Shown in pieces: positions 13,326 to 22,045 of a stretch of 64,000 bases of DNA. The DNA is taken from the IMG/VR virus record IMGVR_UViG_3300032309_001318, positions 1 to 64,000 of that record; one strand, 5' to 3'. The notes beneath the pieces were generated by a model that saw only the letters and a program-made list of their open reading frames with translations, was not told where the DNA came from and ran no database searches. Positions within the stretch are counted from its first letter, which is position 1. Each line of letters opens with the position of its first letter. This DNA comes from a virus. A program made the position numbers and the translations under genes.

Positions 13326-13790
13326 ATGAAACTTAAGTCTTTATTAAACCTCCTAACGCTGGCAGAAAATCCATCTACAGCTTTAGAAGGTGACGTATAC
13401 TTTAATATTTTAACAAAAAATATTAGAATATATAATGGAGATTTTTGGGTAGACATTACCCCACAAAGCGATGATCCAACCCCATTTTATATGCATACAC
13501 ACGCATACGATGGAGCAGTACACACAATAGATGTAGAAAATCCAATTACATTTAAAGATGTTAATACAACACAGAGCGTTTTAGAAAACATTCCAGTTGT
13601 TGTTGGATTTGATGGTGGTGGGCCAAACGATGAAGTAGATGAACCTAATTTTGAAAATTTATCTTTACTTCCAGGAGGCCTACCAGAGTCTATTTATTAT
13701 CCAGAATCTGATAACATTACAATTAACGGTGGAGATTCTTCCACTGAATATGCATCAATAATAAATGGAGGAAATTCAAATGGTAGTTAG
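13326..13790 (+). CDS. Structural/fibre-associated protein
   Basis: EGDVYFN...IRIYNG motif similar to 11951; DGG motifs. Confidence 0.65.
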   Translation: MKLKSLLNLLTLAENPSTALEGDVYFNILTKNIRIYNGDFWVDITPQSDDPTPFYMHTHAYDGAVHTIDVENPITFKDVNTTQSVLENIPVVVGFDGGGPNDEVDEPNFENLSLLPGGLPESIYYPESDNITINGGDSSTEYASIINGGNSNGS

Positions 13791-15126
13791 AATTCAATTA
13801 AGAAGAGACATAGAGTCTGACTGGGTTAGAGATAATCCAATATTGCTTGATGGAGAAATTGCTATATCCTCAGATTTAAATAAATTTAAAATTGGAAACG
13901 GATCTAGGTGGGGCAGCACTTCATACTACAGCTCTCTTACCACTCAAGATTTAGAAAACACCTTGTCTTCATATGTGGAAGTTGGAGATGTTGGAAATGC
14001 AGGAGGCCCAGCAAAATTAGATATTGACGGAAACCTACTAATTCCAAAAGACAAAATTATTATAGAAGGCTCTACTGCAAACGATTATGAATTAACACTA
14101 CAATCACCAGACGTAGCCTCAGACATAACAGTAAATCTTCCCAGCGCATCAGGAACAATAGCTTTGTTATCACAAGTTCCTACTAACTATAATCAATTGG
14201 ATGGTCTACCAACTTTATTTGATGGATCTTATAATAATTTAACAAATAAACCAACTTTATTCGATGGTTCTTATAATGCCTTAACTGGAAAACCAACATT
14301 ATTTAATGGATCGTATAATGCTTTAACCGACAAGCCTTTTCTATTTAGTGGGTCATATGTAGATTTAACTGAAAAGCCTTCTTTGTTTAGCGGAGCATAT
14401 GATGATCTTTCTGGCAAACCAACCATTCCAAATTTAACTGGATATGCAACTGAAACATACGTTGGAACTGCAATTTCAAACCTAATAGATGCAGCACCAG
14501 GTGCTTTAAATACTTTAAATGAAATAGCCGCAGCAATTAATGACGACGCATCGTACGCAGCAACAATAACCACAGAATTAACAGCAAAAGCTCCATTAGC
14601 CTCACCAACATTTACTGGAACGGTTTCGGGTATTACTAAAGATATGGTAGGCTTAGGAAATGTTGATAATACAACAGACGCCCTTAAACCAATATCAACA
14701 GACACATTAAACGCTCTTAATCTTAAAGCTCCATTAGCCTCACCAACATTTACAGGCACCGTATCGGGGATTACAAAAACAATGGTGGGCCTAGGAAATG
14801 TAGACAACACTTCAGATATAGAAAAGTTTTTAATTGTAACAAATTCTCAATCTTCTTCATACACACTACAAGGCTCAGATGCAAACAAAATGATAGAGAT
14901 GACAGAAGTTAGCACTTTGACAATACCAAACGACTCTACCTATAATTTCCCTATTGGAACATATATTGAAGTATTACAAACTACATCAAATCAAGTTACT
15001 ATTGCTGGAGACGGATTTACTCCAAATGCAACACCAGGTTTAAAATTAAGATCTCAATGGTCAAGCGCAAGTTTAATTAAAAGAGCAGCAAATTCTTGGG
15101 TAGTTTTAGGAGACCTAAAGGCGTGA
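13780..15126 (+). CDS. Fibre protein with major tropism determinant N-terminal (Mtd-N) domain
   Basis: RIQLRRD...NPILLDGE...KFKIGNG; GGAGG RBS; VGLGNVDNT repeats; ends WVVLGDL. Confidence 0.8.
   Translation: MVVRIQLRRDIESDWVRDNPILLDGEIAISSDLNKFKIGNGSRWGSTSYYSSLTTQDLENTLSSYVEVGDVGNAGGPAKLDIDGNLLIPKDKIIIEGSTANDYELTLQSPDVASDITVNLPSASGTIALLSQVPTNYNQLDGLPTLFDGSYNNLTNKPTLFDGSYNALTGKPTLFNGSYNALTDKPFLFSGSYVDLTEKPSLFSGAYDDLSGKPTIPNLTGYATETYVGTAISNLIDAAPGALNTLNEIAAAINDDASYAATITTELTAKAPLASPTFTGTVSGITKDMVGLGNVDNTTDALKPISTDTLNALNLKAPLASPTFTGTVSGITKTMVGLGNVDNTSDIEKFLIVTNSQSSSYTLQGSDANKMIEMTEVSTLTIPNDSTYNFPIGTYIEVLQTTSNQVTIAGDGFTPNATPGLKLRSQWSSASLIKRAANSWVVLGDLKA
14188..14424 (+). repeat. About 5.5 degenerate 42-bp coding repeats (LFxGSYxxLTxKPx)
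   Basis: Visible in protein and DNA. Confidence 0.85.
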
Positions 15127-16079
15127 GACTCTTAAGATCTTCAAAAAATAAAAAAAGAGTATCTATTCCAAATATTGTTGGAATGGTTAGGTCAGAAGCC
15201 CTATCATTATTAAATAGTTTAGGATTATCTGTTATAGAAAATAACACAGGAACTTCAAATGAATCTTTGGGTGGAAAAATAATTGATCAGTCTATTGCAG
15301 AAAATTCAGTTGTTCCCGTAGGAACTCAAATAGAATACACATATGGATCTTTTAGCTTTACTCCATTTGGCTTTACACCATTTTCATTTACAGCACCACC
15401 AGACCCAGACCCAGATCCACCTCCGTATCAATTTGATACTCCAGCGGGGTTTGCTTTTACAGTACCTTATACTTTTAGCTGGGAACCTAATTGGTTTGAA
15501 GGTAAATCTGTAAGTGCAACAACTCTTATTAAATCAAAATATCCAACAGGCTTAATATTGGCATATAATTTAAAAGTGGGAGACGTACTATATTCTGCTT
15601 CAATTGAAGGAGTTGATACATCTAATGATCAAATTTTAAATTACATAAATAACTGGACAGCAGAAGACGTAGTAATTGATACAGAAATAGAAACTACCAT
15701 TGTTGCGATGGCAGCAAGAATTACAGATGGAGCTATTCTTATTAATGAAAACAAATATTCTAAAGCACACTGGATATTGATTAAAAATAATGAAGGAATA
15801 AAATTTAAAAATGTCACTGATGTTTTACTAACAGATTTAATATTTTCTCCAATGACACAAGACTGGAATCCCGTTACCCAGTGTATGCCAATAAACTCTA
15901 AAGAGCTAGTAATTTCTATAAACGTAGAGCCATATGATGTATTTTTTACAGATAACGCCTTAGTCCATGATTCCTACAACGCAGCACTAGACCCAAATGC
16001 AATCAATTCATCAGAAGAGGATTTTTCAGAAAAGCTCGTAGCAATGTATACAGAATGGCAAAATTTAATAAAAAAATAG
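15123..16079 (+). CDS. PASTA domain + Phe/Pro-rich linker + Hint domain protein
   Basis: IPNIVGM...IIDQS (PASTA); FSFTPFGFTPFSFT; Hint 15507-15971 (SVSATTLI...LKVGD...SKAH...VEPYDVFFTDNALVHD); GTG start overlaps upstream stop. Confidence 0.75.
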   Translation: MRLLRSSKNKKRVSIPNIVGMVRSEALSLLNSLGLSVIENNTGTSNESLGGKIIDQSIAENSVVPVGTQIEYTYGSFSFTPFGFTPFSFTAPPDPDPDPPPYQFDTPAGFAFTVPYTFSWEPNWFEGKSVSATTLIKSKYPTGLILAYNLKVGDVLYSASIEGVDTSNDQILNYINNWTAEDVVIDTEIETTIVAMAARITDGAILINENKYSKAHWILIKNNEGIKFKNVTDVLLTDLIFSPMTQDWNPVTQCMPINSKELVISINVEPYDVFFTDNALVHDSYNAALDPNAINSSEEDFSEKLVAMYTEWQNLIKK

Positions 16080-20731: not shown

Positions 20732-20755
20732 AGAAAATTATAGAGGAGATTATAT

Positions 20756-22045
20756 ATGTCAAAACAAGCAGGTAGAATGAGCCAATCGGCTAATGACTTT
20801 TTAGAGCCATTTAAGCCAATTATCGGAACAGCAACAGATATAGGAACAGATAGAGCATTTAATAATGGAGCCGCATCTGTACCATTTACAATGAGCGTAG
20901 ATTCACCACCAGCTACTTCATATACAGTTACCTCAAGTCCAGGAAGTTATACTGCTTCTGGATCTTCTTCTCCTATTACGGTACAAGGTTTACAATCTGG
21001 AACTAGTTATACATTTACAGTTATAGCTACAAACTCAGTTGGTAATTCTGTGCCGTCAGACGCAAGTAATTCAATAACAGCAACAACAGTTCCACAAACA
21101 CCAAGCGCTCCAAGTCTTTCAAATAATGGAGCAGAAACGAACTCTGTTTCTTGGTCAGCCCCAGGAAATAATGGTGGAAAAGAAATTACTGGATATGGAT
21201 TAATTGATCATGAAAATGATGTTACGTCATATAACTCTAGTACATTTAGCGCTAACCTATCAGAAAACGGAAATGAAACCCAGACTGTTAGAGTAAGGGC
21301 TCAAAATGCTAATGGATTCTCATCATACAGCTCTAGCTCAAACTCAGTTACTACAACACCATTTAGCTTTAGCCCATTTGGATTTACCCCATTTGGATTT
21401 ACACCGTTTGGATTCACACCATTTGGCTTTACACCATTTGGCTTTACACCATTTGGCTTTACTCCAAAATCGGTTGGAGCAGAAACAGTTATTAAATCAA
21501 AGGTGCCAGAAGGATTAATTCTTGCACACAACCTAAGCGTTGGCGACGTTTTATACTCTGCTAATATCGAGGGAATAGATGTTTCAAATACAGCAATAGT
21601 AGATTACATACAAAATTGGTCTGTTAGTAGCGCAAACATATCCCCAGCCGAAACTACCATTGTTGCAATGGCAGCAAGAATTGCTGACGAAGGAGCTATT
21701 GTTATTAATGGAAATAAATATTCTTTACAGCACTTTATTTTAGTAAAAAGAGATGGACAGATTCAATTCCAACCATCATCAAGCGTATTGGAAACAGATT
21801 TAATTTTTTCACCAAGCGAAAATAACTGGAAAGAAATCACAGACTATAAAGTAACTACACAAAAAGAGTTACTAATATCAATTGACGTAGAGCCATACGA
21901 CGTATTCTTTACAGACAATGCGCTAGTACACGATTCATATAGAGCAAAAACTGATCCAAACGCATTAACTTCTAGCGACGAGACATTTAGCGACAAGTTG
22001 GATGCAATGTATCAGCAATGGAGAGATTCTCAAGACCAAGCCTAG
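20756..22045 (+). CDS. FN3-FN3 + (PFGFT)n repeat + Hint domain protein
   Basis: GLQSGTSYTFTVIATN and WSAP...VRVRAQNANG FN3 motifs; Hint 21470-21934 ending LVHD-S. Confidence 0.8.
   Translation: MSKQAGRMSQSANDFLEPFKPIIGTATDIGTDRAFNNGAASVPFTMSVDSPPATSYTVTSSPGSYTASGSSSPITVQGLQSGTSYTFTVIATNSVGNSVPSDASNSITATTVPQTPSAPSLSNNGAETNSVSWSAPGNNGGKEITGYGLIDHENDVTSYNSSTFSANLSENGNETQTVRVRAQNANGFSSYSSSSNSVTTTPFSFSPFGFTPFGFTPFGFTPFGFTPFGFTPFGFTPKSVGAETVIKSKVPEGLILAHNLSVGDVLYSANIEGIDVSNTAIVDYIQNWSVSSANISPAETTIVAMAARIADEGAIVINGNKYSLQHFILVKRDGQIQFQPSSSVLETDLIFSPSENNWKEITDYKVTTQKELLISIDVEPYDVFFTDNALVHDSYRAKTDPNALTSSDETFSDKLDAMYQQWRDSQDQA
21359..21466 (+). repeat. 15-bp coding tandem repeat PFSFS-(PFGFT)x6-P
   Basis: CCATTTGGMTTTACH-like units with synonymous variation only. 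Confidence 0.95.

Follow-up and report, generated by a model that had tools for sequence, protein, structure and literature searches.

Putative self-processing Hint modules at the ends of secondary adhesins in a duplicated phage fibre cassette

The 64,000-nucleotide stretch of DNA analysed here (the window) is part of the virus record IMGVR_UViG_3300032309_001318, which is 84.5 kb long with a completeness estimate of 78%, and it carries a duplicated two-gene cassette in which a fibre gene is immediately followed by a gene for a modular adhesin, the partner, that ends in a 155-residue Hint domain. Judged from the sequences of the two cassettes and their relatives, the best explanation is that each would encode a primary fibre together with a secondary adhesin made as a self-processing precursor. 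We propose, with moderate confidence, that the Hint domain is a self-removing C-terminal module, similar to the bacterial intein-like (BIL) domains, on an adhesin that would ride on the fibre. The first-pass annotation of this DNA had described a duplicated cassette, and all of its elements are present in the open reading frames (ORFs), Pfam matches and alignments, with small corrections to start coordinates. Specifically, fibre 1 is indeed there, but position 13780, where it had been made to start, is that of its RIQ motif and the ATG lies at 13765. The parts of the two cassettes are as follows, with the residues of partner 1 numbered as in its 327-residue ORF (see below).

13765–15126, plus strand: fibre 1, an ORF of 453 residues with an Mtd_N N-terminus, 14-residue tandem repeats and a C-terminal beta domain termed fib_C
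About 13792–13905, plus strand: Mtd_N of fibre 1 (Pfam, 31.7 bits)
About 14839–15123, plus strand: fib_C of fibre 1, the shared C-terminal beta domain
15123–16079, plus strand: Hint adhesin 1 (partner 1), 318 residues from the GTG at 15123
15159–15335, plus strand: PASTA domain of partner 1 (Pfam, E 1.9e-10)
15348–15506, plus strand: Phe/Pro linker of partner 1, before Hint domain 1
15507–15971, plus strand: Hint domain 1, 155 residues, with Ser138 (15507–15509), Ser222-x-x-His225 and His291-Asp292
15972–16076, plus strand: tail of partner 1, 35 residues from Ser293, with a helix predicted over the last ~16
18566–20731, plus strand: fibre 2, an ORF of 721 residues with Mtd_N and fib_C
About 18581–18697, plus strand: Mtd_N of fibre 2 (Pfam, 63 bits)
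About 20444–20728, plus strand: fib_C of fibre 2, the shared C-terminal domain
20756–22045, plus strand: Hint adhesin 2 (partner 2), 429 residues from an ATG, with N-terminal peptide, two FN3 domains, repeat, Hint domain and tail
20756–21355, plus strand: the two FN3 domains of partner 2 together (Pfam fn3, two stretches, E 7.7e-10)
21356–21469, plus strand: repeat of partner 2, (PFGFT)x7, in which a 15-nucleotide unit encodes PFGFT
21470–21934, plus strand: Hint domain 2, 155 residues, with Ser239, Ser323-x-x-His326 and His392-Asp393
21935–22042, plus strand: tail of partner 2, 36 residues from Ser394

Both fibres belong to Mtd_N (PF18454), their scores lying above the gathering cut-off of 26.3 bits, and both ends show them to be paralogues: the N-termini are 36% identical over 319 columns (E 7e-42) and the C-termini 27% identical over the final 92 columns (E 3e-5), where they have in common a domain of ~95 residues with the motif ..PGLK.R...W.V.GDL.A. 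Fibre 1 contains 42-nucleotide (14-residue) tandem repeats at 14208–14401. In pair 1 the GTG start of partner 1 overlaps the TGA of fibre 1 as GTGA; an alternative ORF from a TTG at 15096 has 327 residues, and the 318-residue length is that of entry P0001, which is 100% identical over the part queried. The genes of pair 2 are separated by a 24-nucleotide spacer, with GAGGAG 8 nucleotides upstream of the ATG of partner 2. Both partners follow a common plan of a basic N-terminal peptide (of a conserved type, ..SQSANDFLEP.., in partner 2), a PASTA or two FN3 domains, a Phe/Pro repeat, a Lys|Ser junction, the 155-residue domain and a helical tail of 35 or 36 residues. The junctions are Lys137|Ser138 and His291-Asp292|Ser293 in partner 1, and Lys238|Ser239 and His392-Asp393|Ser394 in partner 2. 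The 15-nucleotide repeat unit is present in 7.4 copies in partner 2 (21356–21466) and in 2.2–2.4 copies in partner 1 (15351–15392). The C-terminal modules of the partners are 57% identical (137/239 columns, E 7e-84), far beyond chance, whereas the N-termini, PASTA versus two FN3, are unrelated. The earlier view of close Hint paralogues behind differing N-termini therefore holds, and the Pfam matches and pairwise alignments likewise bear out that the cassettes are paralogous modular units with exchanged binding domains.

Hint domains are known as inteins, as BIL domains of bacterial surface proteins and as Hedgehog-type processing domains. By its predicted fold and its sequence motifs, the 155-residue domain is a member of this superfamily. 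An exhaustive, profile-free homologue search (E ≤ 1e-3) gave 101 representatives (clustered at 50%), most of which seem to come from viral contigs, and 68 of the 101 were aligned with the two window modules to give 70 proteins (alignment A1). The 33 left out were mostly fragments that start inside the domain, together with the near-identical P0005 and the multi-stretch P0153 and P0184, and a few further representatives among them were dropped by hand with no fixed rule. The AlphaFold2 model of the 198-residue module built on A1 has a pLDDT of 92.4 and a pTM of 0.88. Foldseek against the PDB listed 45 matches, 40 of them at E ≤ 0.001, and all those listed are intein, BIL, Hedgehog or Vint domains; the top match is Tetrahymena BIL2 (6y75, E 2e-7, TM 0.75 on target), and the Ssp DnaB intein and a Clostridium thermocellum BIL (2lwy, E 2.3e-6, TM 0.77 on target) are among the best. 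The A1 profile, searched against PDB sequences, matched the gp41-1 intein (1.6e-6) and the same C. thermocellum BIL (3.6e-6), and a PDB sequence search with partner 1 alone found PASTA kinases only. Pfam on the 70 proteins of A1 gave Intein_splicing in 9, Hom_end_hint in 6, PT-HINT in 5, Hint_2 in 2 and Hint in 1, and the neighbours in the ESM Atlas are mostly viral Hint clusters, with PT-HINT clusters among them. The identification of the domains as Hint is thus upheld by the predicted fold and by the conserved catalytic positions, and the suggested check by hidden Markov model (HMM) came out by halves, as some of the relatives match models of the Hint clan while Pfam is silent on the window proteins themselves. 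Pfam found no Peptidase_S74 match here either. Whole partner 2 had no tblastn match at 1e-5 among 50,697 phage records, and the 198-residue module gave weak matches (E at least 0.01) to Erwinia and Yersinia jumbo phages only. Tandem Hint arrays also exist: P0160 (1108 residues) has two Hint stretches, the second inside its 184-residue ‘tail’, and P0153 has nine matched stretches.

The catalytic positions are conserved across A1. Domain position 1 is Ser in 59 proteins and Cys in 11, and block B has Ser or Thr in 70/70 and His in 69/70, reading S-K-A-H225 in partner 1 and S-L-Q-H326 in partner 2, so that both window proteins have the residue-1 nucleophile and the block B of the Hint superfamily. 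The last domain residue is Asp in 49 and Asn in 19 (68/70 together), and it is preceded by His in 45, Tyr in 13 and Phe in 9. The residue that follows the domain (+1) is Ser or Thr in 38/70 and a non-nucleophile in 31/70, with no residue there in one row. Two combinations stand out, namely Ser1 with His-Asp and Ser/Thr at +1 (30/70, both window proteins included) and Cys1 with His-Asn and a non-nucleophile, which is the type A BIL signature (11/70). An aromatic-, Pro- and Gly-rich low-complexity stretch (FGFTP, FSPFG, GAF, PPP, GPP) always lies 5' of the Hint domain, and before it are varied Ig-like binding domains, with fn3 in 27/70 and PASTA in 20/70. The tail after the domain is 3–8 residues long in most relatives (median 5.5–7) versus 35/36 in the window, where it is acidic, has no recognisable Pfam domain and carries a motif, ..L..LY..W, that is conserved in the window subfamily. 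The proposal that a short peptide after the Hint domain is displayed on the fibre tip is weakened accordingly, since most relatives keep just 3–8 residues at that place.

Of the known classes, type A BIL (Amitai 2003 and Dassa 2004, as cited in PMC4031507) fits best, and on sequence and model the window domain would be a Ser1/His-Asp/Ser+1 variant of it in a new setting. Shared are the Hint fold, the N-terminal nucleophile, the block B His, a block-G-like end, the lack of a homing endonuclease and the carriage by variable surface-type proteins rather than conserved enzymes, and the Cys1 members of the family (11/70) bear the exact type A signature of His-Asn followed by a non-nucleophile. The window domains differ in having Ser1, His-Asp and Ser at +1, in lying at the very end of the protein and in being part of a phage virion adhesin, known from sequence. 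Hedgehog and Hog proteins have in common with the partners a C-terminal Hint domain and a short helix afterwards and, if the proposal holds, action on the bond at the N-terminus of that domain with release of the N-terminal part, and a Hedgehog structure is among the Foldseek matches (6tyy, E 6.3e-4). Hedgehog, however, is eukaryotic, has Cys1 and no terminal His-Asn/Asp and transfers its N-terminal part to cholesterol, and the partners do not fit that group, having Ser1 and a 35-residue tail that is missing from most relatives. The Peptidase_S74 domains of phage tailspikes and fibres (K1F endosialidase, T5 pb1) are self-cleaving C-terminal intramolecular chaperones. They resemble the proposed module as C-terminal parts of a phage receptor-binding protein that remove themselves after synthesis, but their fold and chemistry (a Ser-Lys dyad, trimer-dependent) are unrelated.

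Natural alleles without the Hint domain indicate what the mature adhesin may look like. With the first 200 residues of partner 2 as query, 136 proteins were retrieved and then scanned with the family Hint HMM. The conserved N-terminal peptide is found in 83 of the 136, and of these 73 are Hint-bearing and 10 Hint-less. In five of the 10 the protein stops directly behind an FSPFG-type repeat, another two finish with a small Cys-rich segment, and the remaining three appear truncated; the helical-tail motif is absent from all 10, and a spliced-type empty allele, with the repeat fused directly to the helical tail, was sought among them and not found. Complete Hint-less genes are present in the following loci.

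L080, 5007–6161: FN3 adhesin that ends shortly after the FSPFG repeat
L082/L083, 5007–6122: FN3 adhesin that ends shortly after the FSPFG repeat
L084, 5007–6155: FN3 adhesin that ends shortly after the FSPFG repeat

These genes encode the same N-terminal peptide, FN3 pair and repeat, stop 5–10 residues past the repeat and are 69–85% identical to the Hint-less query P0255. They sit at the same position as the Hint-bearing genes, 3' of a fib_C fibre and 5' of the same downstream genes. L081 (78% identical to P0255) has a nearly identical repeat region and then runs into a Hint domain; up to the repeat L080 and L081 are almost the same, and the close relatives L085–L087 also continue into Hint. 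At the level of sequence, the Hint-less alleles say that the Hint domain is dispensable, that the partner would not be attached to the fibre through it and that the relevant product would consist of the N-terminal peptide, the binding domains and a repeat whose end is free. The idea that autoprocessing would expose a C-terminal peptide fits these alleles, as they end just after the repeat. In L088 (2329–3640) the adhesin gene is frameshifted between the repeat and a Hint domain of the Cys1/His-Asn-Lys type, which may point to a pseudogene, to an error in sequencing or to a gene that is truly split.

The pairing of fibre and partner recurs in other loci. We surveyed 71 viral loci, two metagenome-assembled genome (MAG) contigs and 13 further loci, with 86 near-complete Hint genes in total. 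Setting aside 12 with less than 1.5 kb of upstream DNA left 74 assessable genes, and a fibre gene ending in fib_C lies directly upstream in 65 of them, which is the outcome of the neighbourhood survey suggested in the first-pass annotation. The Hint proteins of this set go down to 27% identity to the query P0091, which is itself 38% identical to the window module. The nine exceptions are L018, L019, L022 and L024, where the upstream fibre has Mtd_N but no fib_C, together with L046, where enzyme genes intervene between the fibre and Hint genes, L048, L049, L076 and the frameshifted L088. The Hint proteins of L018, L019, L022 and L024 have 914–944 residues, and they, like those of L049 and L076, lie behind an Mtd_N fibre without fib_C and begin with repeated ..W(K/R)......VK..G.W.. 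motifs. These long proteins are another way to carry the same end-module. A scan of genome contigs gave two loci only, both on short MAG contigs with a phage-like gene order, and so yielded no assignment to a host.

Based on these data, we put forward the following mechanism for the cassette. The basic N-terminal peptide of the partner would dock on the putatively branching-type, T4-gp10-like end of the fibre, followed along the partner by the part that would bind the cell surface (PASTA or two FN3), the aromatic/Pro repeat and the BIL-like Hint domain. Ser1, aided by S-x-x-H, would carry out an N-to-O acyl shift at the Lys|Ser bond, and resolution of the resulting ester would let the Hint domain and helical tail leave the adhesin, with the repeat remaining as a free C-terminus as in the Hint-less alleles. 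Plain hydrolysis would give exactly the product that those alleles encode. Some re-joining of the tail may take place alongside cleavage, through Ser+1 and cyclisation of the terminal Asp as in type A BIL, and either class-1 chemistry with Asp or the BIL-A route set out in the relevant part of PMC4031507 is plausible. For a sticky aromatic repeat, a cap that can be removed might bring benefits in solubility, in the timing of assembly or in masking of the adhesin inside the producing cell.

Several observations weigh against this proposal or limit it. Cleavage is deduced from the conserved residues. Neither window partner has a Hint-clan Pfam match at E ≤ 0.1, the superfamily being reached through relatives alone. 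The loci of the survey are phylogenetically related, so that 65/74 does not count independent events, and the type of N-terminal peptide does not cleanly co-vary with the fib_C subtype. At the other end of the domain, His-Asp is paired with Ser/Thr at +1 in 30 of the 34 His-Asp members, the terminal Asp or Asn is retained in 68/70 and a helical tail of 35–44 residues is conserved in one subfamily. This conserved His-Asp|Ser triple, the near-universal Asp/Asn and the tail suggest that the C-terminal junction matters too and may also be active in the window subtype, in which case plain N-terminal cleavage would be an incomplete account.

The same observations are what favours a purpose in true splicing, to which we give a minor but real chance: the Hint domain would be a near-C-terminal mini-intein in which Ser1 makes the ester, Ser+1 receives the N-terminal fragment and the terminal Asp cyclises, joining the tail (helical here, 4–8 residues in relatives) to the repeat. 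Ser1, His-Asp and Ser+1 are all present in the two window proteins, the subfamily retains the tail motif ..L..LY..W, and type A BILs are capable of splicing in addition to cleavage, according to the passages on them in PMC4031507. On the other hand, the +1 nucleophile is missing in 31/70, along with short variable tails, and the tail motif is found in none of the 10 Hint-less proteins with the N-terminal peptide, five of which stop right after the repeat, as do the complete Hint-less genes of L080, L082/L083 and L084. Asp-ending inteins are rare variants, and Asp is a slow substitute for Asn. Measured against a canonical intein, the window proteins have the Ser at +1 but Asp instead of Asn as the terminal residue, and an insertion with an empty allele of joined, contiguous flanks was not seen among the sequences retrieved. 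Since most relatives are also almost without a C-extein, this is not a classical intein, and from its position in the sequences the domain is best described as an end-module and not an inserted intein.

Covalent transfer as in Hedgehog seems improbable. Here the Lys|Ser ester would be resolved by a nucleophile other than water, leaving the C-terminus of the adhesin attached to an acceptor such as one of the conserved lysines in fib_C, or a hydroxyl or amine in the host cell wall bound by PASTA or FN3. The arrangement of a C-terminal Hint domain with N-terminal cargo is that of Hedgehog, the helical segment after it is like the Hedgehog sterol-recognition region, PASTA binds peptidoglycan fragments with free amines, and fib_C contains an invariant Arg as well as two Lys that are nearly invariant. 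No acceptor was identified, which also leaves the ligation suggested in the first-pass annotation unsupported, and transfer is made less likely by the Hint-less alleles at the same position in close relatives, which are incapable of forming the ester. If true, it would mean that a phage uses Hedgehog-type covalent attachment to assemble its virions or to adsorb irreversibly. We think it slightly less probable still that the Hint-like domain is an uncleaved structural or docking module that, for example, holds the partner on the fibre. The silence of the Pfam Hint models, the atypical Ser1 and Asp ends and the fact that conservation within the pair lies in two elements, fib_C and Hint, would agree with such a role, but relatives only 23–49% identical retain the nucleophile, S/T-x-x-H and the terminal Asp/Asn, Hint-less partners still adjoin fib_C fibres and the fib_C fibres of Gordonia phages precede a partner that is not Hint. 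Release of the 35-residue C-terminal helix as an active peptide, in the manner of PT-HINT, is very unlikely, given that tails are only 3–8 residues in most members and that the window tail is acidic with no recognisable domain, even though 5/70 relatives match PT-HINT, PT-HINT clusters are among the ESM Atlas neighbours and the tail is conserved in the subfamily.

Returning to the self-removing module on a secondary adhesin, its proposed attachment site is the fibre end. The fib_C consensus, ..TPGLKLR..S....KR...W...GDL.A, has six invariant positions (one Arg) and seven nearly invariant ones (two Lys). From residue 61 on, the model of this end has block-mean pLDDT values of 91–96 in 8/10 blocks and of 73 and 84 in the rest, and it is confident over the last ~95 residues. 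Its structure matches are the C-terminal end of the Pa223 capsid spike (Z 11.4), a KP1 baseplate chain (8.4), the Solidus tailspike (7.9) and residues 79–180 of CBA120 TSP4 (Z 7.7; VIA Z 7.4–8.4 across CBA120 TSP4 and the KP1 baseplate). Seven of the eight rows with Z at least 6 are phage proteins, after which values drop to Z 3.1, and a Z of 7–8 alone may reflect a common arrangement. Foldseek matched 7rfo_B (E 7.9e-3). In CBA120, branching domains dock secondary receptor-binding proteins. In Klebsiella phages, docking of secondary receptor-binding proteins on a branching domain via a conserved N-terminal peptide is experimentally established, according to the part of PMC13352976 that deals with it. 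Because fib_C resembles the branching type and a short basic N-terminal peptide is found on all partners, Hint-bearing or Hint-less, we infer by analogy that the peptide of the window partners docks on fib_C. The KP32, K11 and KP34 systems (as that part of PMC13352976 presents them) and CBA120 TSP4 resemble the window in the adjacent partner gene, the short conserved start peptide and possibly the fold, and differ from it in that fib_C lies at the C-terminal end of the fibre. A predicted complex of three copies of the fibre-1 end (154 residues) with whole partner 1 scored 0.10 against a mark of 0.32, with no controls, and speaks neither for nor against docking.

fib_C also forms the end of ‘minor tail proteins’ in 242 records of cultured phages (223 from Gordonia phages), where the next gene encodes a ‘minor tail protein’ of ~198 residues that has a basic N-terminal peptide too. 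That this gene might be a hidden Hint protein was rejected (hmmsearch E 0.25–0.28). Two examples are given here.

L074, 3089–4923 (Bizzy gp40–41): fib_C followed by a non-Hint gene
L075, 2150–4906 (Sahara gp27–28): fib_C followed by a non-Hint gene

The nearest cultured relatives of the Hint domain itself are in two jumbo phages.

L079, 2373–3809: gp110 of Erwinia phage vB_EamM_Y3, weakly matched by tblastn and confirmed with the family HMM
L078, 2469–3911: g333 of Yersinia phage fHe-Yen9-02, weakly matched by tblastn and confirmed with the family HMM

Over the full 151 positions of the family HMM their domains score 65.9 and 79.0 bits (66.9–79.7 bits for the whole sequences), with the match in the C-terminal 140 residues. 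They share with the window proteins the Hint family, its C-terminal position, a tail (of 10 residues) and a place in a tail-fibre gene row, and differ in having Cys1, T-x-x-H and His-Asn, with a collagen-like Gly-X-Y N-terminal part. The GenBank note on Y3 gp110, ‘contains intein domain’, is the sole trace of a fibre-type Hint domain in the literature and records that we found. Our literature searches returned no paper on Hint as an end-module of a phage fibre or receptor-binding protein, and as most subscription journals lay outside their reach this absence is unproven; in the portions of PMC3556154, PMC5259590, PMC7412058 and PMC7468147 that bear on the matter, the inteins are ordinary ones in terminase or ribonucleotide reductase genes. 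The present case adds a partner that is a separate accessory protein, the duplication of the cassette, a connection with a putatively gp10-like fibre end and clear natural Hint-less alleles. If the proposal is right, there would be a second, chemically different route to mature or cap fibre-tip adhesins beside the S74 chaperone domains. The system lends itself to experiments, with small, soluble-looking precursors, defined junctions and natural Hint-less controls, and Y3 gp110 and the fHe-Yen9-02 protein are usable stand-ins. A Ser1/His-Asp Hint domain with very short C-terminal flanks could also serve protein engineering.

Three more genes of the fibre module lie between the cassettes, and partner 2 is followed by a gene row for oxygenase-like and other enzymes.

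16146–16703, 16720–18099 and 18168–18524, plus strand: ORFs of the fibre module, in an order unchanged in related loci
22061–29417, plus strand: oxygenase-like and other enzyme genes
22692, 25424 and 26053, plus strand: paralogous genes of the row after partner 2, which also includes a gene at 22061
23237–23971 (sub-threshold) and 24674, plus strand: DUF6065-like genes
26697–27530, plus strand: weak match to an N-acetylglucosamine (GlcNAc) transferase
27530–28072, plus strand: weak match to a dioxygenase
28066–28728, plus strand: 2-oxoglutarate (2OG)-Fe(II) oxygenase (PF13640, 2.5e-16)
28728–29417, plus strand: SDR (NCBIfam)

The Ala-rich fibre gene at 16720–18099 contains 57-nucleotide and 135-nucleotide repeats within 16946–17722. 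For the downstream row NCBIfam added only the SDR and the weak dioxygenase. In distant loci (L011–L073, L076, L077, L080–L088), homologues of the row directly adjoin adhesin genes with or without Hint, and their order varies; to judge from this gene content the enzymes may modify the Pro/Phe repeat tether.

The structural module of the window is siphovirus-like, with a portal, a protease, a major head protein and, before the minor-tail genes, an ORF of 2232 residues (40358–47056) that is taken as the tape measure gene without a family search. The capsid maturation protease (33220–34530) has its nearest relatives, at 45% identity, in ~130-kb Streptomyces phages and in Rhodococcus phages, and, taken with the PASTA domain, this kinship hints at a host among the actinobacteria. 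A single tRNA gene, tRNA-Glu (UUC), is present at 2992–3064.

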